Shown: positions 239 to 55,060, numbered from the stretch's first letter. The stretch is DNA of 64,000 bases from Pseudomonadota bacterium (GCA_021777765.1 JAJYDF010000008.1:19022-83021); one strand, 5' to 3'. Numbers and translations are program-made. Notes: a model not told the origin generated them from the letters alone.

Positions 239-3200
239 TTAATGCTTTAATCTGTGAATTATCTGTTGACTATTTTCAGTAGGATCTTTTTCTTTTTCTC
301 TTCCTTTTTCTTTTGCTCTTACTGGAATTATCAGAAGACCATTTTCAACAAGATATTTTTCTTTTCCTTTTTCTTTCCCTTTTGCTTGTCTTGGAATTAC
401 CCGATGACTATTTTCATAAATTTCATTTTCTTTTTTAGCTATATGCTGTTTGAAACGTAGTGTAGGTTGTCCCGTATTTTGTGGCTGTGGTGGTAATGTC
501 TTGTCCGTGATAGCGTGTTGTTTGCCTTTTTCATCACGACTTTTAGAATCGTTAATCACTTCAAGCGTAATTTCTCTTTCAGGTGCTGGCGAAGGAGTAT
601 GTGAAACGGATTCCTCCCTATGATTATATTGCCAAGAATTTTTAGCATGCCAGGGCACAGACGGATTCTTTAAATGATTAAGATGTTCATGCAGTGATAA
701 TCCAAATTGTTGATAATGTTGCCGTTCTGCGATCAATTTATCGATTAATTCATTTTTAGCGCCTTGATAAGTTTTTTCTTGTTCTGTTTTTTCAATTTCA
801 GAAATTAAAGAGGATAAGCGTTCATCAATTAATGCAAAATATATTGTAATGCGGTTTTGTTTCGACGTTATTGGCATATCAATCTCTGTTTTAGACAACA
901 TATTTTTTACACCCTCTCGTAATAATTGATTAATTTCAACAAATGTGAGAGCGACTTTGTCTGCCTTGTCATTGCTAATGACTAATTTTTGAAGTTGGTC
1001 CCTGATCATCGTGTAGTTACCGTTGGTCATTAAAAGCTGAGTATCTTTTTTGGGTTGAATATAGTCTGAAATTAAAGATGATATTGCAGAGAGTTGCTGG
1101 GGCGTTAAATTGCTTGGCATTTGCTCGGGTATCTCACCAGTTGATTTATGCGATGGGTTTTCTGTTTTAAGTTGAGAAATTATTTGCCACATCTCATTAT
1201 TTAATAAATCGTGTGTTGCTGAAATGGGGTTATTGGTGCTTTTTTTAATATTTTCACACAGCTCGGCTATGGGTAAAACACGATTAGCTTCTTCTGTAAG
1301 GGAATCTGTAATCCGTTTTAATAAATCAATCGTTAAGCTACGTGGATCCATTTTTTCTAAGGATGGAAGTAATTTTTTGCTATTCCATAATTCTATTACT
1401 ATTTGCCATGAGTCCTGTTGCGCTATAAATAAATGCTGTGATGTAGAATCTTTACTTTGAGATCGTATGACCTTATAAAATTCTTTATATTTAAGCAATT
1501 CGTCATATTTTTGTATTGCTAATTCTTTAATTTTTGCAAATTGCTCATTAGTTATAGAATTAGGTGGTGGTGTTGAAAATAAAAATGAAAAATCGTTAGC
1601 GGGTTGTGTAACTAATTTTTGTAATATTTCCAAGGAATTTTGTTGTAATATCAATTGGGAAGTCGATAGTTGAAAATTTGTATTTTGTATATATGTATCG
1701 TAAAAACGTTGCAATGGCGAATTTTTAATGGATTCAGCCAGTAAAATTTTATTAATACTTATAAATTCATCATGAGTGAGATTCGACGGCGCTGTATCCG
1801 ATAAATTGATTTTCGGTTTTACCACATTCTTGATCAAATTCCAGTGATACCTATTTAAATCATTCCGAATTATTGCTAAAGAATCATTAATATTAAGGTT
1901 AGATTTTCTCGTAGATTCAAAGTTGTTTAAAGCGATAGTCATATTATGGTTAACAGTAGATATAAAACTATCTAAATTGGATATAAACTGCTCATCAAGG
2001 CGGTCTTCGGCATGAGATCTAGATTTTAATAAATTACTATTTGTTAACGGTTGCGTATTTTGAGTGGACTGACTTGCTTTCGCGTTCTGCAAATAGGTTA
2101 TTAAAGGTATAGTGACTCTTTCAGGCAAATATGAATCATTATCAGTCCAATGCTTACCATAATGCGTGTGTGTATTACGTAATAATTCAAACGGCGCTAT
2201 CGGAGGTATAATATCTTTTTGTGTATCTTTATTTATTATATCAATCCATCCTTTGTAATCATATTCTGAGCTAACACTACTGTCTTTAATAAACCAAGTT
2301 TTCTTTTGATTTAAATTATCTTTATCCTGTGGGGATAATAGTTGTTTTGCAAGCTGATATCTTTGATGCGATTCAAGATCGAGCAATGTTTTATGAATAA
2401 TAAAAGAGGTTGCATAATCACCATTTTCCATAGATTTATTGGCGCATGATAGCCATTTAGCAATATGTATAGCCATGTCGTTGGTATTATTGAGTGAAGT
2501 AATGTCGCGTCGCAAAGAATTTGCTAACTGTTCATGATGTGTTTGGTTAAGCTGTTGTTCTTTATTTAAGAATTTACTTAAAGAGAATTGGGTGAATATA
2601 TTACGGCTTTGATGGGTTAATACATTGACGTAATTATCTGTTATTTTTTGTTCAGCTTGATGTAATAAGATATTAATCTGTTCTTGATCGGGTGATGATA
2701 TGTTTTTCAATGATTGTCTTAATAATTCAATATTTCGTAATTTTTGTAATGGCGATAATTTTTCATCCTGTGTAATTTTATTAATTTCTTGTGGAAAGGA
2801 GGATAATAATTTTCTGATGATATTAAGATATTCAGGATTGGAACTGATATTACTTTTAACAGTGGTTATAACATTAAACCGTTCAATTTTTTGCAATAAG
2901 CTAAAATCGTTAGTGGTTGGTTTGTTCGCAATATACTCACAAGTATGGAGAATTTTTTTATCAGATAATCGAGAGCTGTTTCGGGCAGTTTCACACTGAG
3001 CCACAAGACCGGGTGGGATATCATTGAGTAACAACGTAGTGACATCATGTATCGCTTTTATATTCCAATAACGAGAATGTTCTGTATCTGCTAATTCTTT
3101 TTTTAATTGTTCACTGATGGTATTAATTAATTGACTTTCTCTGTCTCTCAGATGTTTGAATATAAGAGGAAATTCTTTTTCTCTTTGTGCTAAAGTTGAG

Positions 3201-4621
3201 CTAGGGTCAAATTCTATTTTTCCAGCCGTAGTTATTTCATCACGTAATTTAGCCAATAGTTTCATATTTTTAGCTAATGATTGTACAGGCAATTTATCAT
3301 CATTTATTTTCAATTTCTCTTCTATGTTATTGATATACTCAACTTGCAATCCATCATGCAATGCATTGATATGTTTTTCTATAGTTAACTTGTTAATGAC
3401 GTCAGTGTTCAATAAACGAAGCATTTTTAATTGTTGAAATTTATCATCAATCCGATCTTTTGCTTCAAAGCTGGCGTCGAATAATGGTAAAACAGATCGA
3501 TTGATGAATTGAGATTTTAAATTGTCGTCAATAAAAATGTCAGGCAAATGATTGAACATATTTAAGATGGATGAAGCTTTTTCCAATGCACTATTATTAT
3601 TAGCTAAAGTTTGTTGTATGCTGTATTGTAATGCGCTAATAAATTTATCACGAAATTTTTCTTTAGATTGGACTATATAATTTCTAATATAATTATCACC
3701 TAAAATTAATTTATCTTTTTCTTTAAATATTCGATTGATATCGTTCATCGCTGAATCAAATTTACCTGGATTTTTTTGTAAGCTTTCTTCAATTTTTTGG
3801 TCGATATAATCTGAAAGTTCGGTTTGAAAGGATATTAAAAGTTCATGCCTTTTTGCAGGGCTTGTCAAGATAGATAAATAGCGTTCACCTGAATATGATC
3901 CTATTGCTTTAGGGATTGGCGCAATGGGCAAAACTTTCATTTTGGGTTGAGAAAATCCTAATTCATCATGGGCATCATAATTGCTGGCAGAATAACTGGA
4001 ATCACCATATCTTATCCGTTCGCAATATTTCCTCAATCCCTTGAGTTTATTTTCAACATCCAAACTTTTATCTAATGCAATGTTATTCATTTCTTTTTCT
4101 GCTAGCGTCAACTGATAATTGACTGGATCTAGCAAGTTAAATCTTTCATTAAAAAATTGTGACGGGAGTAATTTAAATTCTTGATTGAATTTATTGAAAT
4201 TATCTACAGTTTTTAATTTTTCATAGGGAGTATAAGAAATTTTATCCACATTTTTTTCAATAAATCGGGTCAGATAGTTAATGATCTCTTTAGGGTTGCC
4301 CACATTAATATTATTGTTATTATTTGCTTTATCATACTCAACCTCATATAGGTTTATTTGATAGGTCAATAATTCGTTGGATTCTTTTAGAGCCTTTATT
4401 TGATCGCGATCGCTGCGTGAAAGATCAGTCAATTGGGAAAGATGTTTAATTTGTTGTGTGTATAAATTATTTAATTCACAAATAAAACTGTAATTTTTGC
4501 TGCAAATTTCTTTATAAAAGTCAGGGTATTCTCTATAAAGCGCATAATTGACAGGTAAGGATTTTAAACCTGCTTCAATCAATCCGCGTGTCATTGCAGC
4601 TGCTTTTAATTTATCTTTCAT
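239..4621 (-). CDS. large hypothetical protein (1460 aa), candidate secreted effector with RasGEF-like central motifs
   Basis: Uninterrupted 4.4-kb ORF in AT-rich DNA with coiled-coil-like low-complexity composition. Central residues ~655-825 carry Cdc25-homology-like motifs (see findings). The C-terminus has a KGKEKGKEK tandem repeat. Confidence 0.8.
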   Translation of the reverse strand: MKDKLKAAAMTRGLIEAGLKSLPVNYALYREYPDFYKEICSKNYSFICELNNLYTQQIKHLSQLTDLSRSDRDQIKALKESNELLTYQINLYEVEYDKANNNNNINVGNPKEIINYLTRFIEKNVDKISYTPYEKLKTVDNFNKFNQEFKLLPSQFFNERFNLLDPVNYQLTLAEKEMNNIALDKSLDVENKLKGLRKYCERIRYGDSSYSASNYDAHDELGFSQPKMKVLPIAPIPKAIGSYSGERYLSILTSPAKRHELLISFQTELSDYIDQKIEESLQKNPGKFDSAMNDINRIFKEKDKLILGDNYIRNYIVQSKEKFRDKFISALQYSIQQTLANNNSALEKASSILNMFNHLPDIFIDDNLKSQFINRSVLPLFDASFEAKDRIDDKFQQLKMLRLLNTDVINKLTIEKHINALHDGLQVEYINNIEEKLKINDDKLPVQSLAKNMKLLAKLRDEITTAGKIEFDPSSTLAQREKEFPLIFKHLRDRESQLINTISEQLKKELADTEHSRYWNIKAIHDVTTLLLNDIPPGLVAQCETARNSSRLSDKKILHTCEYIANKPTTNDFSLLQKIERFNVITTVKSNISSNPEYLNIIRKLLSSFPQEINKITQDEKLSPLQKLRNIELLRQSLKNISSPDQEQINILLHQAEQKITDNYVNVLTHQSRNIFTQFSLSKFLNKEQQLNQTHHEQLANSLRRDITSLNNTNDMAIHIAKWLSCANKSMENGDYATSFIIHKTLLDLESHQRYQLAKQLLSPQDKDNLNQKKTWFIKDSSVSSEYDYKGWIDIINKDTQKDIIPPIAPFELLRNTHTHYGKHWTDNDSYLPERVTIPLITYLQNAKASQSTQNTQPLTNSNLLKSRSHAEDRLDEQFISNLDSFISTVNHNMTIALNNFESTRKSNLNINDSLAIIRNDLNRYHWNLIKNVVKPKINLSDTAPSNLTHDEFISINKILLAESIKNSPLQRFYDTYIQNTNFQLSTSQLILQQNSLEILQKLVTQPANDFSFLFSTPPPNSITNEQFAKIKELAIQKYDELLKYKEFYKVIRSQSKDSTSQHLFIAQQDSWQIVIELWNSKKLLPSLEKMDPRSLTIDLLKRITDSLTEEANRVLPIAELCENIKKSTNNPISATHDLLNNEMWQIISQLKTENPSHKSTGEIPEQMPSNLTPQQLSAISSLISDYIQPKKDTQLLMTNGNYTMIRDQLQKLVISNDKADKVALTFVEINQLLREGVKNMLSKTEIDMPITSKQNRITIYFALIDERLSSLISEIEKTEQEKTYQGAKNELIDKLIAERQHYQQFGLSLHEHLNHLKNPSVPWHAKNSWQYNHREESVSHTPSPAPEREITLEVINDSKSRDEKGKQHAITDKTLPPQPQNTGQPTLRFKQHIAKKENEIYENSHRVIPRQAKGKEKGKEKYLVENGLLIIPVRAKEKGREKEKDPTENSQQIIHRLKH
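291..432. repeat. imperfect ~70-bp tandem duplication inside the 3' end of the 1460-aa CDS
   Basis: Two consecutive ~70-bp units at ~75% identity (cttttt(c)tcttcctttttctt...ggaattatcagaagacc versus ...ggaattacccgatgac). They encode two IP(R/V)xAK(G/E)KEKG(K/R)EK peptide units. Confidence 0.6.
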
Positions 4622-6624: not shown

Positions 6625-9042
6625 TTACTTCATAGCGGGTTCATTTTTTCCTGACGCGTTTTGTTTGTTAGCTTGTTCCTTTTCTTTTGTTGGTTTGCTT
6701 GCTTTATCTTTTTCTTGTTTATTTGATCCAAAGAGACTTGATAGGAACGAGGGAAAAATTCCCTCTTTTTTTTCTTTATTTATTGGAGTGGATTGTTTAT
6801 CAACGAGAGGTTTGTCTGCATTGGCTGCATTTAGAACAGTTTTTGTAGATACCCCTGGTTCAGCAGATGAAGCTGTGCTTGAGGTTAATGGTAATGATGG
6901 GTTATTGGATGGCTGAGATGCTGTGGTTGATTTTAGTTGTGAACTCATGACAGGAGTTGATGAGGAAGATGATGTTGCCAAGGCCTGTTGCCCAGGGATT
7001 AGTGATGATATCTCGGGATTGGCTAGTGCGGCAGGTACTAAAGGCGGGGCTTTATCATTTTGATGAAGATTTGCGATCGGTAATACAGGAATGAGATAAC
7101 CGGATACTACTTTCGAACCTTTTTTTGGTTGAGTCTCACCGGAATGCGTTTTTGATATCGCTATCGGTGCTGAACTGGCATAAGGTTTTTTTTCTTGAAG
7201 TGCTGTTAAATTTTTACCCAGTTTTAATATTTCAAATTTTAAATCTTTCACAGGCAATTCATGAAGAATATTGCACATAATGAGATTTTCAATTTCATCA
7301 GCCTTAAATTCAGGCTGACATAATTGTTTGAGTTGCTCTTTTTTATTATCATCCGATAAGCTACTGTCCATAATATCCCCGGCTTTTTTATCGAATAATT
7401 CAACTGAGATACCCGTATTTTTACAATATTTTTTTAATATCGGTGTCAACTGGCGCACTATGAGGTCCGCAACACATAATTTGATCAGTTTATCATTAAA
7501 TTCTTCTTTTGATATGATTAAAAAAGTGAAAATAACTTCGTTTAATTCCTCTACTGTTAAATGCTCGCTGAGCATATTGAGTAAGTTATCAAAAATATTA
7601 GTCGGATTAAAATAGTTGATATTAAGGCCAACTAATGCTTTAGCAATATCTATAATTGGCATGATTTCTTTACAAAGATTTATTAAAGATCGAATAAAAT
7701 GGCTTATTTTTTGATAAGGACGTAATGCAAATTGTTTATAGGCTACATTAATCGCTCTATTGGGATTTGTGTGATATTCAATATGCTTCTCAATTTGATT
7801 TGATAGGAGTGTTAAATCATCGAATGTTTGTTTACTCAGGGTTATCTTTTGCGGATTTTTGTGTGTTAATTCGGTAATGATATTATTTATTGAATTTAAT
7901 ATTTGAAATGTGTCTTCTATTTCTTGCGGTGAATAAAAATCTTGTGGTGACATTTTTTTATAAAGTTCAGTAAACACATACCTAGATTGATTATAATAAA
8001 TATTGTGACTTTTAACTTGCTTTTGGAATTTTTCCAAGTTACTGGTTTCTTCTGCGCTAAGTGTAGTATCCGCAATCATTTTATCGAGCACTTGATTTAA
8101 CTTTAACAATAATGATTCAACATCTTCTTCGTCTAACCAAAAAGAATCCAATATTGCGGTATTATCAAGACGCACAACAGGTAAATTACTTTGATTTTTA
8201 TAGAGGTAAAAGTCTTCTCTATTAAGAAAATCTCCCACAAAGGCTAATATAATACAAGAAATTTGCGATAAAGCCTCATCTGCCGATAATTCAATAGGAT
8301 GATTAGTATCATCATTCGAGATGGGTACTAAATAGCTTCTTTTTCCTCTTGCAGTAAATAATTCTGAAGTTAAAAAGGAGACTTTGGGGGTGCCTACATT
8401 TTTGCGGAATGTAAATTTGAGATTCATTTTGTCAACAATTTGTTGATTTTCTTTTGCTAAAATATTAATTCGGGAAATAAGATGGCATAAGATTAATGTT
8501 AATAAAGTAGAATGATTAACCGATTCAGGATCTTTATTATATTTTTCTTTATGGTGGTCGTCAAACCATTTCCAACATTCTGCTTTGAATTCGTCCTGCC
8601 AACGTCTATTTTTCCCTCCCCGAATATAATCTCTACCGATAGAATAATCAGATATTGAGGAAGCATAATTATCGAAGGATTCTTTATCTGCTGGAAAATC
8701 TTTATCCATATGGCACATTTTTTTGAATCTATCAAAATATTGCTTATCATGATTATTTAAATAAGTTAAATAGTCGTTTGCCATCCTATTTTGATAAGGG
8801 CCAATGGGTCCATTGATGTAAATTTCAGTTGCAATATCTGTGCCAATATCAGCAGCTTGATTTTGTGATGAATTGTTTTGTTGTGCACCAGACAACTTTT
8901 GATAGGTTTCCTGATCATGTCCGTTCATAAATAAGTACAGGCAAAACCGTATTCGGCCTAAGGGATGTCTTTCGTTGTCATAATAGATCTTCTTGAATTT
9001 TTCAAACATCTCCTGGATTTGCGCTTCTTCTAAAGCCTGCAT
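6625..9042 (-). CDS. hypothetical protein (805 aa) with Ser/Thr/Pro-rich C-terminal tail; effector candidate
   Basis: Long ORF 55 bp downstream of tRNA-Glu. No recognisable catalytic motif. The C-terminal ~200 aa is a low-complexity S/T/P/K-rich region. Confidence 0.75.
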   Translation of the reverse strand: MQALEEAQIQEMFEKFKKIYYDNERHPLGRIRFCLYLFMNGHDQETYQKLSGAQQNNSSQNQAADIGTDIATEIYINGPIGPYQNRMANDYLTYLNNHDKQYFDRFKKMCHMDKDFPADKESFDNYASSISDYSIGRDYIRGGKNRRWQDEFKAECWKWFDDHHKEKYNKDPESVNHSTLLTLILCHLISRINILAKENQQIVDKMNLKFTFRKNVGTPKVSFLTSELFTARGKRSYLVPISNDDTNHPIELSADEALSQISCIILAFVGDFLNREDFYLYKNQSNLPVVRLDNTAILDSFWLDEEDVESLLLKLNQVLDKMIADTTLSAEETSNLEKFQKQVKSHNIYYNQSRYVFTELYKKMSPQDFYSPQEIEDTFQILNSINNIITELTHKNPQKITLSKQTFDDLTLLSNQIEKHIEYHTNPNRAINVAYKQFALRPYQKISHFIRSLINLCKEIMPIIDIAKALVGLNINYFNPTNIFDNLLNMLSEHLTVEELNEVIFTFLIISKEEFNDKLIKLCVADLIVRQLTPILKKYCKNTGISVELFDKKAGDIMDSSLSDDNKKEQLKQLCQPEFKADEIENLIMCNILHELPVKDLKFEILKLGKNLTALQEKKPYASSAPIAISKTHSGETQPKKGSKVVSGYLIPVLPIANLHQNDKAPPLVPAALANPEISSLIPGQQALATSSSSSTPVMSSQLKSTTASQPSNNPSLPLTSSTASSAEPGVSTKTVLNAANADKPLVDKQSTPINKEKKEGIFPSFLSSLFGSNKQEKDKASKPTKEKEQANKQNASGKNEPAMK

Positions 9043-27157: not shown

Positions 27158-27472
27158 TTATATGCCGGTTATTAAGAAATCTAATGACGCTATTATTTCA
27201 TTTCTTCTATTTTGTAGCGATCCTATTTTATGTGTTAGCAAACGGATAGATATCGAAGCTAATTCGGCAGTAGACATCATAACTGTCGTATTTTGAATGG
27301 TAAATTGTGGCATTAAATTATTGAGAGGTTTTTTTACTTTGCTTGATAATACCAGAGGGATAACTACACGGGTGGAAAGTTCGCTCAATAAATCTGATTG
27401 TACATCCAATAGAAATGGCATATTTTTTTTGCTTTCGGGATTAGTATTTGCATAAATATCAAATTGCGCCAT
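27158..27472 (-). CDS. ccdB: CcdB-family toxin (gyrase poison)
   Basis: Aligns with F-plasmid CcdB (LLDVQSD, VIPL, MMSTAEL/MMTTDMASV, C-terminal ...GI). 104 aa. Confidence 0.85.
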   Translation of the reverse strand: MAQFDIYANTNPESKKNMPFLLDVQSDLLSELSTRVVIPLVLSSKVKKPLNNLMPQFTIQNTTVMMSTAELASISIRLLTHKIGSLQNRRNEIIASLDFLITGI

Positions 27473-27720
27473 TAGAATTGTCGAACTCCATCACTAAATA
27501 ATCCATCTTTCTCCATACGTTTATTATATTCATCAATGGCGCTCTGATTTTCTTTTAACCATTGTGCTCTATGGGCTTTGCTTATTAATTCAACGAGCCG
27601 CTCTTCTAATGTCTGTGAAAGATTGATGTGAAGCGATTTAGCCTGTTTAAGCAAGTCATCACTAATGCTGAGATTTGTTGCTCTTTTGGGTGATTGGGCA
27701 TAATGGAAATGCGTGTTCAT
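27472..27720 (-). CDS. ccdA: CcdA-family antitoxin
   Basis: 82 aa. W(K/L)xENQ and NKRxEKDGLFSD motifs resemble F-plasmid CcdA. Overlaps the ccdB start by 1 nt (ATGA). Confidence 0.8.
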   Translation of the reverse strand: MNTHFHYAQSPKRATNLSISDDLLKQAKSLHINLSQTLEERLVELISKAHRAQWLKENQSAIDEYNKRMEKDGLFSDGVRQF

Positions 27721-35779: not shown

Positions 35780-35984
35780 GTAAAAATGAGTAAATTGAAT
35801 TGTATTTGTTTTTCTTTAACAGGTGATTCTCTATCAAGTTCATTATTGGTTTATTAACAATGTGGCATAGGAAGTGCACAAATTCGCATTTACGTTTTCA
35901 ACAAGCGAGATTGAGTTATTAATTGATTAAATAAATTATTAAAAGGATTTAATTGATTGTTTCATTCATTTTAACCAATTTATT

Positions 35985-36701
35985 ATGTTAAAGATTGGGC
36001 AAAGGCAACGCGTTAATACTAGCAAGGATGCCAAATCCGAAATAATTAATATACAAATCGCATTTTTTGGGTTGCTCGCATTATTATTAGCATTTAATTT
36101 TACGCTGGCATCCAATAGATTTGAAATGCGTAAACAAATTATGATGGAACAAAGTAATGCGATAGAAACTTCTTATTTAAGAATTAATTTATTACCACCA
36201 TCTGAACAATTACCATTACAAAATGCTTATAGAGTTTATGTGAATGATATGTTGGAATTCTTTCAAAGAGAACACACCATAACAAAATTGAAATATATTG
36301 ATCTGCAAATACGTCAAATACAAGATCAAATATGGTCACTCGCCATGGCGGCAATTGCAAAAAATCAACAGCCGATATATTCAGCCTTATATATTATTTC
36401 TTTGAATAATGTTTTTGATGAATATAATAGCTTTATTACCTCCACTTTTAATCATGTGCCAGATGCTTCAGTATATCTACTTTTTATCGTTTCATTATTT
36501 ACCATGGGTTTAATTGGGTATAGTAATGGATTAGATAATAAGCCAAATAAAATTACCATGATTTTGTGTTCTATTGTTATTGCATTGGTTATCACTATTA
36601 TTTTAGATTTGGACAGACCATTTAGAGGTTTAATTCAAATGAGTGATAAAAATTATATAGATTTACAACAGACTATGAATGCTGTTGAAAAAACTCAATG
36701 A
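35985..36701 (+). CDS. hypothetical membrane protein (DUF4239-like)
   Basis: 238 aa with an N-terminal and two C-terminal TM segments. No catalytic motif. Family assignment is from memory only. Confidence 0.55.
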   Translation: MLKIGQRQRVNTSKDAKSEIINIQIAFFGLLALLLAFNFTLASNRFEMRKQIMMEQSNAIETSYLRINLLPPSEQLPLQNAYRVYVNDMLEFFQREHTITKLKYIDLQIRQIQDQIWSLAMAAIAKNQQPIYSALYIISLNNVFDEYNSFITSTFNHVPDASVYLLFIVSLFTMGLIGYSNGLDNKPNKITMILCSIVIALVITIILDLDRPFRGLIQMSDKNYIDLQQTMNAVEKTQ

Positions 36702-36790: not shown

Positions 36791-36809
36791 AACTCAATAG
36801 AGATAACTT
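36791..36809. repeat. left copy of the 19-bp direct repeat AACTCAATAGAGATAACTT flanking the hen1-pnkp cassette
   Basis: Identical 19-mer at 41005-41023. The next bases are similar (gtgataaaatg versus atgataagatg). Confidence 0.85.
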
Positions 36810-36862
36810 GAATCGTGTGATAAAATGGTTACTTTAAATGAATAATTGAAGGTAAGATTCAT

Positions 36863-38257
36863 ATGTTATTAACAATAACAACAACAAATCAACCCGCTAC
36901 TGATCTTGGATATTTATTACATAAACACCCTGATAAATTACACACTTTTGAATTGTCTTTTGGTAATGCTCATGTATTTTATCCTGTTGCAAACCAGGAT
37001 AAATGTACCGCGGCATTGTTATTGGATATTGATCCCATCTCGCTAGTTAGAAAATCGAAAGGCAATGAAAATTTTGCGCTTCAACAATATGTTAATGATC
37101 GGCCTTATGTAGCCTCATCATTTATGAGCGTTGCTTTAAATCGTGTATTCCGCTCGACCTTAGCTGGACAATGTAAAGATAAACCTGAATTGGTCAATCA
37201 ATCAATGCCACTGGAAGCAAAAATATCTGTCATATTTTGTGGGGTTGGTGAACAGATATTGAAAAATTTATTTGAACCACTGGGTTATACCATAACAATA
37301 CAGCAACATATATTAGATGAACATTTTCCAGAATGGGGCATTAGTAATTATTTTACGCTTATATTGAAAAATAATTGTACATTGCGAGATCTGTTAACGC
37401 ATCTTTATGTATTAATTCCCGTTTTAGATAACGAAAAACATTATTATATTGATGAGGCTGAAATTGATAAATTAATGCGAATGGGACAAGGTTGGCTTGA
37501 GTCCCATCCTGAAAAAGAATTTATCATCAAACGTTATCTTAAATTTAAGGATTTAGCCGACGAGGCATTAGAGCAATTAGCTATAAATGACGTTAATAAT
37601 TTAACGAATCAATATGCTCACGAAACTGTCACAGAAGAAGCGCTGGAACAATCTACCAATCTCAATGAAATTCGCATTAATACCATTTTATCAGTATTAA
37701 AAGAGTATAGAGTTAAATCCATTATGGATATTGGTTGCGGTGAAGGAAAATTATTAAAAGCATTAGCATCTGAAAAAATGGTTGAAAATATTGTTGGATG
37801 TGATGCTTCACCAACTGCGTTGGCGCGCGCACAAAAAAATCTGAATTTAGAACAGTCCGATTTTCTTAAACAAAGAATTTCATTAATACAAACAGCATTA
37901 ACTTATCGCGATAAGCGTTTACTGGGCTTTGATGCGGCAACCATTATTGAGGTAATAGAACATTTAGACCAATCACGATTGGATACTTTTAAAAGAATTA
38001 TTTTTGAGTTTTATCGACCAAAGTTGATAATTATTACTACGCCTAATCATGAGTATAATATTTTATTTGAAAAATTAGTTCATGGTGCATTTCGTCATCC
38101 TGATCATCGCTTTGAATGGACTCGTCAACAATTTGAACAATGGTCGAATTTAGTTGCTGATGAATTTGGTTATAAAGTTCATTTCCAGGGCATAGGATCG
38201 CAATCAGAAAAATTTGGTTCGCCGACGCAAATGGGAGTTTTTATCAGAAATGAATAA
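36863..38257 (+). CDS. hen1: bacterial Hen1 RNA 3'-terminal ribose 2'-O-methyltransferase
   Basis: C-terminal SAM methyltransferase motif IMDIGCGEGKLL...GCDAS...IIEVIEHLD and a Hen1-like N-terminal domain. 464 aa. Coupled to pnkp by an 8-bp overlap. Confidence 0.8.
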   Translation: MLLTITTTNQPATDLGYLLHKHPDKLHTFELSFGNAHVFYPVANQDKCTAALLLDIDPISLVRKSKGNENFALQQYVNDRPYVASSFMSVALNRVFRSTLAGQCKDKPELVNQSMPLEAKISVIFCGVGEQILKNLFEPLGYTITIQQHILDEHFPEWGISNYFTLILKNNCTLRDLLTHLYVLIPVLDNEKHYYIDEAEIDKLMRMGQGWLESHPEKEFIIKRYLKFKDLADEALEQLAINDVNNLTNQYAHETVTEEALEQSTNLNEIRINTILSVLKEYRVKSIMDIGCGEGKLLKALASEKMVENIVGCDASPTALARAQKNLNLEQSDFLKQRISLIQTALTYRDKRLLGFDAATIIEVIEHLDQSRLDTFKRIIFEFYRPKLIIITTPNHEYNILFEKLVHGAFRHPDHRFEWTRQQFEQWSNLVADEFGYKVHFQGIGSQSEKFGSPTQMGVFIRNE

Positions 38258-40799
38258 TCAAGTAATCAATTTACCGCAATTATCTTTAGTCTTATTAGTG
38301 GGCGTATCGGGGAGTGGTAAATCAACATTTGCGCGCAAACATTTTAAAGCAACAGAAGTAATTTCATCTGATTATTGTCGTGCCTTGGTAGCTGATGATG
38401 AAAATGATCAAACTGCAACCCGTGATGCTTTTGAGGTGCTTAATTTTATTGCTGGAAAACGATTAGCAGCAGGTAAATTAACTGTTATTGATGCTACAAA
38501 CGTGCAAGCTGAATCTCGAAAAAGTCTCATTGAATTGGCAAAGCGTAATCATGTATTAGCTGTTGCGATTGTATTTAATATCGATCCGACTATTTGCTCC
38601 GAACGCAATGTGCTTCGCGAAGATCGCGATTTTGAAGATCGAGTTATTCACGCGCAATATCATCAATTACAGCGATCATTAAATAAATTACGTAAAAGCG
38701 AAGGATTCACGCGTACCTATATATTGAATTCTGTTGATGAAATAAATTCTGTAATCATAGAGCGTCACCGCTTATATAATGACAAACTATTTGATCATGG
38801 ACCATTTGATATTATTGGTGATATTCATGGTTGTTTCGATGAATTGATTGATTTATTACAAAAATTAAATTATCAAATCACTATTAATGAACAGGGTTAT
38901 CAAATTATTCATCCCGAGAATAGAAAAATTGTGTTTGTTGGTGATTTGGTTGATCGAGGTCCTAAATCGCCTGATGTTTTAAAATTAGTGATGAGTGTGG
39001 TTACATCAGGTGTAGGATATTGTGTTAATGGAAATCATGATAATAAATTAAAACGTAAATTAATGGGCAACGATGTTCAAATTACGCATGGCCTAAAAGA
39101 AACATTAGCGCAACTTGAAAATGAATCGCACGATTTTAAATTAAAAGTAAAAGATTTTCTTGACGGTTTAATCAGTCATTATGTATTTGATGATGGCAAG
39201 CTTGCCGTAGCGCATGCAGGATTACGTGAAAAATATATAGGACGTGGTTCTGCTAGAATACGTGATTTTTGTATGTATGGTGATACCACTGGTGAGACTG
39301 ATGAATTTGGTTTACCAATTCGCTATGAATGGGCAAAGGATTATCGAGGTAATACGATTATTGTATATGGTCATACGCCAATCCTAGAACCAGAATGGTT
39401 AAATAATACGATTAATATTGATACGGGTTGTGTCTTTGGGGGCAAACTCACAGCATTACGTTATCCCGAAAAAGAAATCATTTCTGTGTCTGCTGCACAA
39501 ATGTATTACAAACCGATCAAACCGATAGGCCATAATGTCGTTGATAAAAACGATATCATTTTAGATATTGAAGATATTGCTGGAAAACGGATTATAAACA
39601 CGCAATTATTAAATAATATCACCATTCGGGAAGAAAATAGTATCGCCGCAATAGAAACAATGACACGATTTGCTATTGATCCGCGATGGTTAATTTATTT
39701 GCCACCCACCATGTCACCTTCAGAAACAAGTCATGAAGCTAATTATTTGGAACATCCAAGAGAAGCAATAAATTATTTTCATAAGAGATCAATTTATCAA
39801 TTAATTTGTCAAGAAAAACATATGGGTTCAAGAGCTATTGTCATTATTTGCAAAAATAATCAGGTAGCAAAAAATCGGTTTAAAGTAACACATGATGCAA
39901 TTGGTATTTGTTATACCCGTACAGGTCGTAATTTCTTTTCAGATAATGAGCATGAACAACAATTTTTAGAAAAAGTTCAAAATGCAGTTTCTAAAATAAA
40001 TTTATGGGAACAATTAAATACTGACTGGCTTTGTTTGGATTGTGAAATAATGCCATGGTCTGCAAAAGCGCAATCATTAATTGAGAAACAATATGCTGCT
40101 GTAGGTTGCGCAGCTGAAGCAACATTACATGAAATAAGTGAATTGCTATTGAAAACAAAAAACAGGGCTATTAATCAAGTCGGTGAGATTGAAGAGAAAT
40201 TTAATAAACGATTAACTATGATAAATGCTTATCGTGATGCATATCGGCGCTATTGTTGGAATATCAATTCAATAGAAGATTACAAATTGGCACCATTTCA
40301 TATTTTAGCATTTGAAAATCAGGTGAATTTAGATAAAAATCATTTATGGCATTTAAATATTATTAATCAATTATGTGATACAGATGCCAATTTTTTTAAA
40401 AAAACAAATTATAAAATTCTCGATACCAATAATGCTGAAAATTGTGATGAAGTTATTGCGTGGTGGCATGAATTAACTTCTTCGGGTGGTGAGGGTATGG
40501 TAGTAAAACCGCTAGATTTTACAATTAAAACTGCTAGGGAATTAATTCAACCTGGTATTAAATGCCGAGGCCAAGAATATTTGCGCATTATTTATGGCCC
40601 AGAATATTTAGAGCCAGCGAATTTAGAAAAATTAAGATCGCGTCATTTGGGGCTGAAAAGATCATTAGCGTTGAGAGAATTCGCTTTAGGCCACGAAGCG
40701 TTAAATCGTTTCATCAATTTTGCTCCATTATATAAAGTACATGAAGCAGTGTTTGGTATTCTCGCTCTTGAGAGCGAGCCAGTTGATCCGAGATTATAA
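38250..40799 (+). CDS. pnkp: polynucleotide kinase-phosphatase (Pnkp) with kinase, metallophosphoesterase and ligase-like domains
   Basis: P-loop GVSGSGKST kinase, calcineurin-like GDIHGC...GDLVDRG...GNHD phosphoesterase, and a C-terminal adenylyltransferase-like domain. Start set at the internal MNNQVINL. The ORF extends upstream to 38214. Confidence 0.82.
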   Translation: MNNQVINLPQLSLVLLVGVSGSGKSTFARKHFKATEVISSDYCRALVADDENDQTATRDAFEVLNFIAGKRLAAGKLTVIDATNVQAESRKSLIELAKRNHVLAVAIVFNIDPTICSERNVLREDRDFEDRVIHAQYHQLQRSLNKLRKSEGFTRTYILNSVDEINSVIIERHRLYNDKLFDHGPFDIIGDIHGCFDELIDLLQKLNYQITINEQGYQIIHPENRKIVFVGDLVDRGPKSPDVLKLVMSVVTSGVGYCVNGNHDNKLKRKLMGNDVQITHGLKETLAQLENESHDFKLKVKDFLDGLISHYVFDDGKLAVAHAGLREKYIGRGSARIRDFCMYGDTTGETDEFGLPIRYEWAKDYRGNTIIVYGHTPILEPEWLNNTINIDTGCVFGGKLTALRYPEKEIISVSAAQMYYKPIKPIGHNVVDKNDIILDIEDIAGKRIINTQLLNNITIREENSIAAIETMTRFAIDPRWLIYLPPTMSPSETSHEANYLEHPREAINYFHKRSIYQLICQEKHMGSRAIVIICKNNQVAKNRFKVTHDAIGICYTRTGRNFFSDNEHEQQFLEKVQNAVSKINLWEQLNTDWLCLDCEIMPWSAKAQSLIEKQYAAVGCAAEATLHEISELLLKTKNRAINQVGEIEEKFNKRLTMINAYRDAYRRYCWNINSIEDYKLAPFHILAFENQVNLDKNHLWHLNIINQLCDTDANFFKKTNYKILDTNNAENCDEVIAWWHELTSSGGEGMVVKPLDFTIKTARELIQPGIKCRGQEYLRIIYGPEYLEPANLEKLRSRHLGLKRSLALREFALGHEALNRFINFAPLYKVHEAVFGILALESEPVDPRL

Positions 40800-41004
40800 A
40801 CAGATAGTATTTACAATATGAGGAAGTATTTTTTTGATACTAAAATTTTTATTAAGCTGGCGGATGAATAAATGCTCATCTGAAATTCTTAACAAAATGT
40901 ATCTTTATTCAGTAATATCAAATAAGAATAAATATTTTTTACCAATTTTTATATATATTTAATCAATGTGCTTATTTTTAAAAAAAGGAAACGAAATGCC
41001 GCAA

Positions 41005-41023
41005 AACTCAATAGAGATAACTT
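41005..41023. repeat. right copy of the 19-bp direct repeat AACTCAATAGAGATAACTT
   Basis: Exact match to 36791-36809. Lies 206 bp after the pnkp stop and 54 bp before the ffh start. Confidence 0.85.
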
Positions 41024-41076
41024 ATAATATATGATAAGATGTCTGAATTTATTGATTTACCTAGGGTTTGTTGCAG

Positions 41077-42468
41077 ATGTTTAATACCTTAACTGAAGGC
41101 TTAACGCGCGTTTTCCAAAGCATTACCGGCCAAGGCCGTCTGACTGAAGAAAATCTCCAAGAACCATTACGCCAAATACGCATGGCTTTATTAGAAGCCG
41201 ATGTGGCATTACCTGTGATTAAAGAATTTCTCGCTGATATTCAGGCGAAAGCGATAAATCAACAGGCTGAAATCATTGATAAAGATGTATTGCGTAAACT
41301 CTCGCCGGGCCAAGCCTTTATCAAAATAGTGCATGATGAATTAGTCATGTTAATGGGCGCAGCCAATGAATCGTTGTCGCTCAATGTGCAACCGCCTGCG
41401 ATAGTGTTAATGGCGGGCCTGCAAGGTTCTGGTAAAACAACTACGGTTGCTAAATTAGCGCGTTGGTTGAAAGAATCTCAAAAGAAAAATGTCATGGTGG
41501 TGAGTTGCGATATTTATCGTCCTGCTGCTATTAAACAGCTTGAAACATTGGCCCATGATGTGAAAGTCGAATTTTTTCCTAGCGACGCATCCCAGTCTCC
41601 TGTTGCAATTGCTCAACAAGCAATTGCTGCCGCTAAACAAAAATTAATGGATGTAATAATCATCGATACCGCTGGTCGCTTGCATATCGATGCTGAAATG
41701 ATGCTAGAAATTAAAGATATTCATGCTGCTATAAAGCCCGTTGAAACGTTGTTTGTTGTCGATAGTATGACAGGTCAAGATGCGGCAAAAACCGCGCAAG
41801 AATTTAACCAAGCCCTGCCCCTGACCGGCGTAATATTAACTAAAACAGATGGTGATGCACGTGGCGGTGCTGCTTTATCGATTCGCAAAATCACAGGTAA
41901 ACCCATTAAATTTATGGGCGTTGGTGAAAAAACCGATGCATTACAACCTTTTTATCCCGACCGTATTGCTTCACGTATTTTGGGTATGGGCGATGTTTTA
42001 TCTTTAGTTGAACAAGTCGAGCAAAAAATTGATCGCGCTAAAGCAGAAAAAATGGCGCAAAAAATACAAAAAGGTAAACGTTTTACATTAGAAGATTATC
42101 GCGAACAAATATTACAAATGAATAATATGGGTGGAATTACCGGATTGCTCGATAAAATTCCTGGTATGGGGATGATTCCTTCAGCAGCGAAAGATAAAAT
42201 TAACGATAAAATGTTTAATCGCTCGATGGCAATAATTGATTCAATGACAGTAAAAGAACGTAACAAACCTGAAATTATTAATGGATCACGTAAACGACGC
42301 ATAGCCAATGGATCTGGTGCGACGATACAAGATGTGAATCGCTTATTAAAACAGCATGAACAAATGGAAAAGATGATGAAAAAAATGAGTGGTAAAGGTG
42401 GCATGTTAAAAATGATGCGCACTATGAAACATTTGTTACCACAAGGCGGAAATTTACCTTTTTCTTAA
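41077..42468 (+). CDS. ffh: signal recognition particle protein Ffh
   Basis: GLQGSGKTTT and DTAGR GTPase motifs, Met-rich M domain. Start at MFNTLTEGL. Confidence 0.93.
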   Translation: MFNTLTEGLTRVFQSITGQGRLTEENLQEPLRQIRMALLEADVALPVIKEFLADIQAKAINQQAEIIDKDVLRKLSPGQAFIKIVHDELVMLMGAANESLSLNVQPPAIVLMAGLQGSGKTTTVAKLARWLKESQKKNVMVVSCDIYRPAAIKQLETLAHDVKVEFFPSDASQSPVAIAQQAIAAAKQKLMDVIIIDTAGRLHIDAEMMLEIKDIHAAIKPVETLFVVDSMTGQDAAKTAQEFNQALPLTGVILTKTDGDARGGAALSIRKITGKPIKFMGVGEKTDALQPFYPDRIASRILGMGDVLSLVEQVEQKIDRAKAEKMAQKIQKGKRFTLEDYREQILQMNNMGGITGLLDKIPGMGMIPSAAKDKINDKMFNRSMAIIDSMTVKERNKPEIINGSRKRRIANGSGATIQDVNRLLKQHEQMEKMMKKMSGKGGMLKMMRTMKHLLPQGGNLPFS

Positions 42469-53263: not shown

Positions 53264-55060
53264 ATGGATAGTAATCTTTTTGACCTCATAAGACACGCCG
53301 AGCTATTTAGCTATCTTAACGAAGATGAATTAAAAGAATTATTGAATATCGTTGGATTAATTAATTTACATCCGGGTCAAATTTTATTTGAGCAAAATGA
53401 AGATTCAGATAGCATGTATTTGCTATTAAAAGGAGATCTCGTCGCATCTATCATTACACACAATGACGAAGTTAAAATTCTAGGGTATGTGCGAGCGGGT
53501 GAAATCGTAGGAGAAATGGGATTAATTTCTGCTCAACCTAGAACATTAACTGTTACAGCATTAAATGAAGCAAGTTTGATTAAATTAACACGTAATGTTT
53601 TTGAACAATATTTTCAAGATCGTCCTCAACCGTTACTGCATATACTTTCTCTTGTTATTAATCGTGCACAACATACCATTCAATCAATTAGTACAATAAA
53701 ACGATGTACCGTTATCGCGATAGTTCCTGCAAATGAAAATAAAATAATTGATGTACTGTTTGATCAAATCAGTGAATTACTTAAAAATAATGTTAAAGTG
53801 AGTTTGTTATCTGAAAAAGACTTTCACAGTCATCCTACTTTAGATACCGCAAAAAGATTAATTGATAAATTAAGTCGATCATGTGATTTTATACTATTTA
53901 AAGTTGATTTAAATAATGAAATTACTAAACAATTAATCTATGAGAAGACACAGCGTGTATTAGTGATTGCCGAGCATGCTGAAAAACCTGATTTGCATGA
54001 TTTTGTAAAAAAATTAATTAATAATAAATCTTATGAATTTATTAAAAAAGAATTAGTATTGATCTATAACAAACCCAAAATGGTGCCTCAATTTACTAAA
54101 TTATGGTTAAATGAAGGACAGTTTTCTCAACACTATCATATAAAAATGCAACAAGATGATTATAATTATTTACTTCGTTTTTTAGTGGGTGAACCCATAG
54201 GTTTGGTTTTAAGTGGTGGTGGCATAAAAGGATGGGCCCACGTCGGTGCACTAAAAGCCTTATATGAAGCACAAATTCCTATTGATGCTGTTGGTGGAAC
54301 GAGTATAGGCGCTATTGTGGGCGCATCTTATTTACTAAATGAAGATTATTTAGGTTTAGTCGATGCGATGCATGAGTTTGCTAATTTTGCACAAAGCATG
54401 ATTCAAGTTAAAGAATTTACTTATCCCATAATTTCAGTATTAGATGGTAAAAAGAAATTTATTGGTTTATATAAATTGTTTAATGGTATGCATATCGAAG
54501 ATTTATGGCGACCCTTTTTCAGTATCTCAGCAAATCTCAGTGATAATATTGAAGTGGTTAATCGTCAAGACAGTTTATGGCTATGGACCAGCGCCAGTAG
54601 TTCGCTTCCTGGTCTTGTGCCGCCCATTACCCATGAAGGAAAAATTTATTTAGATGGTGGCGTGGTGAATAGTTTGCCAGTTGATGTGATGAAAAATATT
54701 TTAGGGGATAAAGGAAGAATTATTGCAATCGATTTAAGTTTATCGTTAAAAAGTGACTCAGGTTATTCATTTCCTCCAGTCATTACTTTTAAAGATGCAT
54801 TACTTTATAAATTGAAATTTAAAAAATATAAAGATTTCAAATTTCCCAATTTTACATCCACTTTATTGGAATCATTAATGATGGGTTCGCAAACCAAAAC
54901 AGAACAAAATTTATTACTAGCAGATATTGTTGTGCGTCCAGATTTATCCAAATATCGAATGATGAGTTCATTACCTTTAGCGGATGAATTAATGGAAATT
55001 GGTTACCGTGCAATGTCAGAGCAATTACAGTTAATTATGAAAGATTACCATCCAGTGTAA
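53264..55060 (+). CDS. cyclic-nucleotide-binding domain fused to patatin-like phospholipase (NTE-like)
   Basis: N-terminal cNMP-binding-like region (GQILFEQNEDSDSMYLLLKGDL...GEIVGEMGLI). Patatin motifs GLVLSGGGIKGWAHVG and GTSIGA (GxSxG), plus the DGG catalytic-Asp motif. Confidence 0.85.
   Translation: MDSNLFDLIRHAELFSYLNEDELKELLNIVGLINLHPGQILFEQNEDSDSMYLLLKGDLVASIITHNDEVKILGYVRAGEIVGEMGLISAQPRTLTVTALNEASLIKLTRNVFEQYFQDRPQPLLHILSLVINRAQHTIQSISTIKRCTVIAIVPANENKIIDVLFDQISELLKNNVKVSLLSEKDFHSHPTLDTAKRLIDKLSRSCDFILFKVDLNNEITKQLIYEKTQRVLVIAEHAEKPDLHDFVKKLINNKSYEFIKKELVLIYNKPKMVPQFTKLWLNEGQFSQHYHIKMQQDDYNYLLRFLVGEPIGLVLSGGGIKGWAHVGALKALYEAQIPIDAVGGTSIGAIVGASYLLNEDYLGLVDAMHEFANFAQSMIQVKEFTYPIISVLDGKKKFIGLYKLFNGMHIEDLWRPFFSISANLSDNIEVVNRQDSLWLWTSASSSLPGLVPPITHEGKIYLDGGVVNSLPVDVMKNILGDKGRIIAIDLSLSLKSDSGYSFPPVITFKDALLYKLKFKKYKDFKFPNFTSTLLESLMMGSQTKTEQNLLLADIVVRPDLSKYRMMSSLPLADELMEIGYRAMSEQLQLIMKDYHPV

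Follow-up and report, generated by a model that had tools for sequence, protein, structure and literature searches.

A canonical hen1-pnkp RNA-repair operon upstream of ffh, probably placed behind a duplicated copy of the ffh promoter

Introduction

The Pnkp-Hen1 system for RNA repair in Clostridium thermocellum and Anabaena variabilis, described by the Shuman and Huang laboratories, consists of two proteins for which several structures have been solved (PDB 4drf, 3ty5, 4j6o, 4gp6, 3jwg). In the chemistry described for Pnkp and Hen1, RNA is healed, methylated and sealed, and hen1 and pnkp are reported to lie always in one operon (PMC4411300). The Pnkp1-Rnl-Hen1 system of Capnocytophaga gingivalis uses the same chemistry to heal, 2'-O-methylate and seal ribotoxin-cut RNA, the ligase being a separate protein and hen1 being unlinked from pnkp1/rnl (PMC4411300). 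Here, we describe a hen1-pnkp pair from a Pseudomonadota bacterium, located in a stretch of 64,000 nucleotides (GCA_021777765.1 JAJYDF010000008.1:19022-83021, hereafter the window, to which all coordinates refer) and bracketed by two exact copies of a 19-mer (36791-36809 and 41005-41023), directly upstream of ffh. We consider it probable that this direct repeat reflects a duplication of the ffh promoter and leader, the duplicate of which would drive an otherwise canonical hen1-pnkp operon.

At the protein level, no difference was seen between the window pair and the C. thermocellum/A. variabilis system: the same two proteins are present, with the same domain architecture and catalytic motifs, and their genes are likewise adjacent and co-oriented with hen1 first. 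The setting differs, since the window host is an AT-rich (34% GC), ankyrin-rich gammaproteobacterial metagenome-assembled genome (MAG), in which the operon lies between a DUF4239 gene and ffh, behind what is probably a duplicated promoter. Unlike in C. gingivalis, the ligase is fused within Pnkp and the two genes overlap, and the predicted domains assign the window system to the classical two-component type.

Results and Discussion

The 19-bp Repeat and the Promoter Regions of hen1 and ffh

An earlier reading of this DNA, made from the sequence only, had pointed to an exact 19-bp direct repeat around hen1-pnkp, and this repeat (AACTCAATAGAGATAACTT) was recovered here. As that reading had stated, 53 nt separate copy 1 from the hen1 ATG; copy 2 lies 205 nt beyond the pnkp stop codon. 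The sequence-only reading had overlooked that copy 2 also ends exactly 53 nt before an ATG, that of ffh at 41077, which is the called start in all assemblies (a TTG at 41068 is only the mechanical start of the open reading frame (ORF)). The elements of the two regions, including the ribosome-binding sites (RBS) and the predicted 5' untranslated region (UTR), are as follows.

36791-36809, plus strand: 19-mer copy 1, exact match, core of the putative duplicated ffh-type promoter
36798-36803, plus strand: −35-like TAGAGA on the hen1 side, inside copy 1
36810-36862, plus strand: hen1 leader of 53 nt from copy 1 to the ATG (−10 element, predicted 5' UTR, RBS GAAGG at 36848-36852)
36818-36826, plus strand: predicted extended −10 element TGaTAAAAT of hen1-pnkp, at the same offset from the 19-mer as its ffh counterpart
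41005-41023, plus strand: 19-mer copy 2, exact match, predicted native upstream edge of the ffh promoter
41012-41017, plus strand: −35-like TAGAGA on the ffh side, inside copy 2
41024-41076, plus strand: ffh leader of 53 nt from copy 2 to the ATG (−10 element, RBS TAGGG at 41062-41066)
41032-41040, plus strand: predicted extended −10 element TGaTAAGAT of ffh, consensus match
41077-42468, plus strand: ffh, signal recognition particle protein (TIGR00959, 572 bits)

After each 19-mer comes, at an equal offset, a predicted extended −10 element (TGATAAAAT on the hen1 side and TGATAAGAT on the ffh side), and a variable spacer of 8 nt separates the 19-mer from this element (TGaTAARAT) at both sites. 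The promoter scan returned TAGAGA-17 nt-TAAAAT with an upstream TG at 36798-36826, a site that was over the threshold with 9/12 consensus positions and was one of only two TG-extended sites in the 5.5 kb scanned. Its ffh counterpart, TAGAGA-17-TAAGAT (8/12), is not among the sites of the scan and was identified by direct reading. Both are candidate sigma-70-type promoters, in which the two hexamers stand 16-18 nt apart. The 10-nt blocks TGATAAAATG (36818-36827) and TGATAAGATG (41032-41041) are identical at 9/10 positions, and a fraction of 2e-4 of the window positions match the extended −10 10-mer as well as this. The ribosome-binding sites, both purine-rich (GAAGG for hen1, TAGGG for ffh), are in register as well. 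When the two leaders were compared in this fixed register (36810-36862 vs. 41024-41076), 28/53 positions were identical, against a background of 18/60 (30%) both in the 60 nt to the left of the repeats and in the first 60 nt of the ORFs; the probability of this identity was about 4e-4, whether estimated by shuffling or from all windows across the 64 kb. The hen1 leader can thus be described, by its alignment, as a diverged paralogue of the ffh leader. No Rfam element was found in either of the two leaders.

Conservation of the 19-mer Upstream of ffh in Relatives

Four relatives without a cassette upstream of ffh were found by Ffh protein search and contig look-ups, with loci of 3.7-11.7 kb. 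A genome-contig scan with Ffh returned only distant relatives (≤70% identity) that shared no synteny.

L083: Ffh 93%, 19-mer 19/19, leader 44/53
L153: Ffh 91%, 19-mer 15/19, leader 41/53
L084/L085: Ffh 89%, 19-mer 16/19, leader unscored (indel)
L154: Ffh 74%, AACTCAATAGAG retained (12 nt), leader unscored

These loci hold one copy of the 19-mer each, always at ffh. The spacing of 53 nt between the 19-mer and the ffh ATG is common to L083 and L153, and both the −35-like and the −10 elements are kept in the ffh orthologues. The gene upstream of ffh is dapB in L083, a 308-aa minus-strand ORF in L153, a minus-strand acyl-carrier protein gene in L084, and a 159-aa ORF in L154. Because the 19-mer is kept before ffh in relatives despite these differing upstream genes, it is predicted to form the conserved left border of the native promoter of ffh in this lineage, the hen1 copy being its putative paralogue. 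Judged by the L154 outgroup, the form of the 19-mer core found in the window and in L083 is ancestral, and gene conversion therefore need not be invoked. With five different neighbours in five related genomes, pnkp in the window being the fifth, the DNA directly upstream of the ffh promoter also has the appearance of a rearrangement hotspot.

By blastn, L083 aligns with the window from 41002 onwards, three bases upstream of the 19-mer, and in every relative homology picks up again at the 19-mer (window 41002, L083:270, L084:~1130, L153:~1048, L154:~1145). A further NCBI MAG contig, DAIAOE010000020.1 (GCA_027437415.1; L086), is 99.8% identical to the window from mid-ffh (41599) to 52468, while L086:1-835, comprising the last part of fabF, a spacer of 65 bp and the first ~500 nt of ffh, is unrelated to the window at the DNA level. 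This break may be due either to a chimeric assembly in the conserved GTPase region of ffh or to genuine recombination within the gene.

A Probable Duplication of the ffh Promoter and Its Alternatives

The direct repeat is best read as a duplicated promoter because the 19-mer, the register of the −10 element and the length of the leader are all shared with ffh. According to this reading, which we hold to be probable, hen1-pnkp, directly upstream of ffh, would stand behind a second copy of the ffh promoter; the ffh copy would be the original and the hen1 copy the derived one. The duplicate, if active as a promoter, would give the acquired operon a housekeeping-type, ffh-like transcription. The operon would be horizontally acquired but compositionally native, and is likely driven by the duplicated ffh promoter. 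The locus resembles, in this respect, the duplication or capture of promoters by acquired genes in general, with a native promoter segment repeated before an acquired operon and the −35 element, the −10 element and the leader length kept. No published example involving hen1-pnkp or ffh came to light, although no search was aimed at one.

Several observations weigh against a duplicated promoter. The promoter elements are consensus matches only, and the promoter scan gave fewer sites in this region than in shuffled sequence. Between the hen1 and ffh leaders, identity is no more than 53%, as compared to 77-83% among orthologous ffh leaders, whereas the 19-mer is identical at 19/19 positions; outside the −10 element, the similarity of the two leaders (19/43 identical, p 0.03) is only marginally significant. 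This uneven identity (19/19, 9/10 in the −10 element, then 44%) fits no single simple history well. A recent duplication of 77 bp should still be near-identical throughout; the pattern calls for an old duplication whose core was under strong constraint, or else for a duplication or crossover that affected the core alone while the remainder converged. If a crossover was restricted to the core, as in an att (attachment site)-like or Campbell-type event, the sharp edges would be explained, but the −10 element in register and the leaders of equal length would have to be put down to coincidence or to an ffh-like leader already present in the donor. Moreover, the single copy at the "empty" dapB-ffh site of L083 is predicted by target duplication as well, and the census of the 19-mer covered about 64 kb of the source genome.

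The 19-mers had previously been regarded as a target-site duplication or att-like scar of a small mobile cassette, and this view is for the most part not supported, given the position of the repeat at the ffh promoter edge, the −10 element and 53-nt distance that are kept, and the lack of mobility genes. We consider it unlikely that the 19-mers are the footprint of an insertion, either as a target-site duplication or as the attL/attR core left by a circular cassette of hen1-pnkp that recombined into the promoter of ffh, through site-specific recombination or through a Campbell-type single crossover at the sole perfect-identity stretch of the diverged promoter regions. As in attL/attR or target-site duplications, a perfect direct repeat surrounds a gene pair of a mobile type, which elsewhere is found on plasmids and beside insertion sequence (IS) elements, and a relative with one copy exists. 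The 4.2-kb interval between the 19-mers contains exactly two genes, hen1 and pnkp, and the perfect identity drops abruptly on the left, where the arms are unrelated, and steeply on the right, like an att core. In addition, no Pnkp above 69% identity was found outside this species in a collection of 5.8 billion proteins, though Ffh relatives at 89-93% (known only from 2.7-13-kb contigs) are present in it, which hints at a species-specific acquisition. However, the marks of a transposon, a transposase and/or terminal inverted repeats inside short direct repeats, were not found: no transposase, integrase or other DDE/serine/tyrosine recombinase was called within 10 kb on either side, no inverted-repeat pair joins the two ends of the interval, and terminal inverted repeats are lacking at the inner edges of the 19-mers. 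Unlike in att and transposon cases, the repeat is part of a longer in-register similarity that extends into the right arms and ends at the start codons; a simple staggered-cut duplication predicts neither the similarity through the −10 element nor the conserved distance to the ATG. To our knowledge, target duplications of transposons measure about 2-15 bp at most, compared with which 19 bp is unusually long. Nine other cassettes lack flanking repeats, the longest exact match between the 400 bp upstream and the 400 bp downstream being 8-9 nt (shuffled maximum, 10-13) as compared to 19 nt in the window. All 11 contigs of the species, from several samples, share dapB-DUF4239-hen1-pnkp-ffh without presence/absence polymorphism, and the composition of the insert is fully native. 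The empty site with one repeat copy, which had been predicted, was encountered only in part. In L083, dapB adjoins ffh across a gap of 229 bp with one exact 19-mer and no hen1-pnkp, but DUF4239 is missing as well, and the site is not a precise empty one: of the dapB-DUF4239 spacer, about 30 bp (window 35920-35951) are kept, followed by about 115 bp of unrelated DNA that has no window counterpart; apart from these 30 bp, the dapB-ffh intergenic region of L083 gave nothing above the null, either with the 3' flank of DUF4239 or with that of pnkp. The window and L083 thus differ by about 5 kb whose junctions do not match, and not by a clean repeat-bounded insertion. A further reading, also very unlikely, has a circular hen1-pnkp cassette without an integrase, or mobilised in trans, that carries its own diverged ffh promoter and leader and integrates Campbell-style into the ffh promoter of related bacteria, with the 19-mer as its crossover core. 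If this were true, the cassette would be a small "promoter-homing" RNA-repair unit that arrives with housekeeping-type expression signals and restores the target promoter when it inserts.

Alternatively, the 19-mer could be the operator of a transcription factor, or a UP-like element, through which ffh and hen1-pnkp are co-regulated, its identity being kept by selection for binding and not by a recent common origin. We judge this quite unlikely as the explanation of the repeat, although it is compatible with a duplicated promoter and not exclusive of it. Conservation of the core far exceeds that of its surroundings, between the two sites (19/19 vs. 28/53) as well as among ffh orthologues (15-19/19 vs. 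41-44/53), and the 19-mer reaches about 7 nt upstream of the −35-like hexamer. However, it has no dyad symmetry, no third copy was found in the 64-kb window with up to 3 mismatches allowed, and relaxed searches of the window for the core motif gave only chance-level 1-mismatch matches to a 12-mer; 19 identical bases equidistant from two start codons are, moreover, more simply explained by duplication. The likelihood that the 19-mer is due to chance in AT-rich intergenic DNA, or is a member of a genome-wide family of the repetitive extragenic palindromic (REP) type, seems negligible to us. The repeat scan, which covered about 64 kb of the genome, leaves some room for such a family, but shuffled sequences would give 0.04 matches at ≤3 mismatches, none of 100 shuffles reached two, and the longest chance repeat in equivalent flanks is 12-13 nt. 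The 3.7-11.7-kb loci of the relatives carry one copy only, at ffh. Scans of metagenome and viral collections for a degenerate 19-mer returned 51 and 2 loci, respectively, none of them near ffh, hen1, pnkp or dapB; with a GC content of 23-72%, they were judged to be unrelated chance matches. The possibility, raised earlier, that the 19-mer is a common promoter motif scattered through the genome was therefore borne out in its first half, as it is predicted to be a promoter element of ffh, but not in its second, the motif being local and not scattered elsewhere in the 64 kb.

With a duplicated ffh promoter as its probable explanation, the locus would represent one concrete way in which an acquired operon may join host transcription, namely behind a duplicate of an adjacent housekeeping promoter. 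It also suggests that a gene pair may look mobile and be bounded by a perfect direct repeat without that repeat being the trace of an insertion.

hen1 and pnkp Encode Full-Length Hen1 and Pnkp

36863-38257, plus strand: hen1, 464 aa (TIGR04074, Hen1_L, PDB matches and motifs)
38250-40799, plus strand: pnkp, polynucleotide 5'-kinase/2',3'-phosphatase/ligase, 849 aa from the ATG at 38250

The identification of both proteins in the sequence-only reading was upheld by full-length profile matches far over the cut-offs. Hen1 scored 666.9 bits against TIGR04074 (cut-off 340), residues 2-461 covering positions 1-461 of the 462-position model, and Pnkp scored 1360.3 bits against TIGR04075 (cut-off 750), residues 6-849 covering positions 3-851 of 851; both proteins are thus members of their equivalog families. 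The N-terminus of Hen1 (residues 1-240) matched the whole 242-position model of Hen1_L (PF12623, E 4e-111) as well as PDB 4dqz, 4drf and 4e6n (E 1.5e-88), of which 4drf and 4e6n are the complex of the Pnkp ligase with the Hen1 N-domain. Its C-terminal methyltransferase domain matched PDB 3jwg-3jwj, and the motifs DIGCGEG at 289, EVIEH at 363 and HPDHRFEW at 412 are identical in the aligned 3jwi and 3jwg. The S-adenosylmethionine (SAM) motif, EVIEH and HxDHRFEW presumably correspond to the metal-binding and catalytic residues of the CthHen1 literature. A 3'-terminal ribose 2'-O-methyltransferase activity is assigned to Hen1 by family and would be expected of the window protein.

In Pnkp, the kinase domain was recognised as AAA_33 (P-loop) at residues 13-142, with E 1.6e-56 to the CthPnk structures 4gp6 and 4jst and with the motifs GVSGSGKST at 18 and SSDYCR at 39. 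The phosphatase domain was found as Metallophos at residues 185-379 (E 2.5e-107 to 4j6o), with the metallophosphoesterase motifs GDIHG at 190, GDLVDRG at 231, GNHD at 261 and GHT at 374. The ligase-like C-domain, whose absence would have spoken against the identification, is present as PNKP_ligase at residues 466-844 (E 5e-172, whole 377-position model), and at its lysine-nucleophile motif, EKHMGS at residue 522, the C. thermocellum ligase structures 3ty5, 3ty8 and 4drf have the aligned QKHMGS. Together, the two proteins match the solved C. thermocellum ligase, ligase/Hen1-N complex, phosphatase, kinase and methyltransferase domains. The pair is accordingly predicted to consist of full-length bacterial Hen1 and Pnkp family members in which all catalytic motifs and the ligase domain are intact.

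The ORF map confirmed that the two genes overlap by 8 bp (ATGAATAA), and pnkp may be translationally coupled to the upstream hen1. By analogy with the family, Pnkp would phosphorylate the 5'-OH end and remove the 2',3'-cyclic phosphate, the Hen1 N-domain would bind and activate the Pnkp ligase domain, and Hen1 would methylate the terminal 2'-OH at the break before the ligase seals it, leaving a repaired junction that should resist re-cleavage at the same site. The locus is an ordinary, canonical two-gene bacterial RNA-repair operon, with adjacent and co-oriented genes. It leaves the knowledge of RNA repair unchanged, and adds the classical Pnkp-Hen1 system to an uncultured, ankyrin-rich and probably host-associated gammaproteobacterial lineage.

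Gene Order and Context of Other hen1-pnkp Cassettes

For comparison, ten cassettes from six phyla were examined: L087 (Gammaproteobacteria-like), those of a Tisiphia endosymbiont chromosome, of Asticcacaulis and of a Parachlamydiales MAG, and six located on plasmids of Leptospira, Nostoc, Methylobacterium, Deinococcus, Rhodococcus and Skermanella. In all ten, hen1 was upstream of pnkp, and in six the two genes overlapped by a few bases. The 8-bp overlap of the window, ATGAnTAR, also occurs in L087 and L088, the two closest cassettes; the closest homologue is L087, with 63% identity for Hen1 and 69% for Pnkp. The gene order of the window had been described as inverted, which is wrong: the order is the usual one, a leading hen1 with a short overlap being normal across the comparison cassettes.

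Some of these cassettes have further genes in or near them. L087:688-7700 is an "RNA repair and ribosome rescue" cluster with hen1-pnkp, a YbaK-like tRNA_edit gene, a hibernation-factor gene (S30AE), archease and rtcB, and rtcB is also found about 2 kb from the cassette of the Skermanella plasmid. Two variants (L089:2492-7520 and L159:1-5035) have genes between hen1 and pnkp, namely a gene for an ankyrin-repeat protein in Asticcacaulis and two genes for nucleotidyltransferase-domain proteins on the Deinococcus gobiensis plasmid. The latter proteins possibly belong to the RlaP family (PMC12776372).

The few named proteins among the top Pnkp matches (60-64% identity) include ones from Candidatus Tisiphia, Rickettsiaceae, Parachlamydia and Parachlamydiales. 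The presence of obligate intracellular or protist-associated bacteria among the matches hints at a possible exchange in a shared host niche. The identities to Pnkp of free-living phyla are only slightly below those to these bacteria.

Genomic Surroundings

35985-36701, plus strand: gene of a bestrophin-like/DUF4239 membrane protein (PF14023, E 1e-11)
40800-41004, plus strand: AT-rich spacer of 205 bp after pnkp, no recognisable terminator

The flanking genes named previously, DUF4239 and ffh, were both confirmed by profile match. DUF4239 is absent from the dapB-ffh interval of L083, and its 58% homologue sits in an unrelated context. A role of DUF4239 as a third repair component was rejected, as the gene is absent from all other cassettes and the homologue is located elsewhere.

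Neither a terminator-like site nor a structured RNA was found after the pnkp stop codon (terminator scan; RNA fold z-score +0.85), and some read-through from pnkp into ffh would therefore be possible. The spacer between pnkp and ffh showed no homology to the ffh-upstream DNA of the relatives.

The GC content of hen1 and pnkp (33.5-34%) and that of their third codon positions (GC3, 0.22-0.23) equal those of the native neighbours, and the skew is also indistinguishable. A recent acquisition, as judged from composition, was rejected, given that GC and GC3 match the neighbouring native genes.

Nothing in the 64-kb window identifies the ribotoxin that is countered. A ccdA/ccdB toxin-antitoxin pair lies at 27158-27720 (L144:1174-1736), about 9 kb upstream of hen1-pnkp and beside atpI/atpB; the CcdB family is a gyrase poison and not an RNase.

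The window also contains six very large ORFs (239-4621, 6625-9042, 9186-12311, 12343-16758, 45003-47033 and 47070-48056), three with ankyrin repeats (1041, 1471 and 328 aa) and three without any Pfam match (1459, 804 and 676 aa), as well as a leucine-rich repeat (LRR) protein and a cyclic nucleotide monophosphate (cNMP)-binding patatin-like phospholipase (53264-55060). This content of ankyrin, LRR and patatin proteins would be consistent with a eukaryote-associated lifestyle.

Downstream of pckA, an Rfam cspA thermoregulator (RF01766, 80.3 bits, gathering score 78) was detected at 44278-44677, the match spanning the 5' region and the coding region of a gene for a 72-aa cold-shock-domain protein. 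Downstream of cspA, the window encodes on the plus strand a 676-aa unknown protein, an Ank protein and a 402-aa unknown protein (45003-49466), and the counterpart in L083 (L083:4072-10119) encodes on the minus strand an 834-aa protein with a weak AvrB_AvrC match, a 727-aa unknown protein and an Ank protein. This suggests that a variable effector islet may lie between the conserved cspA and Ala_racemase_N/SpoU-methylase genes.

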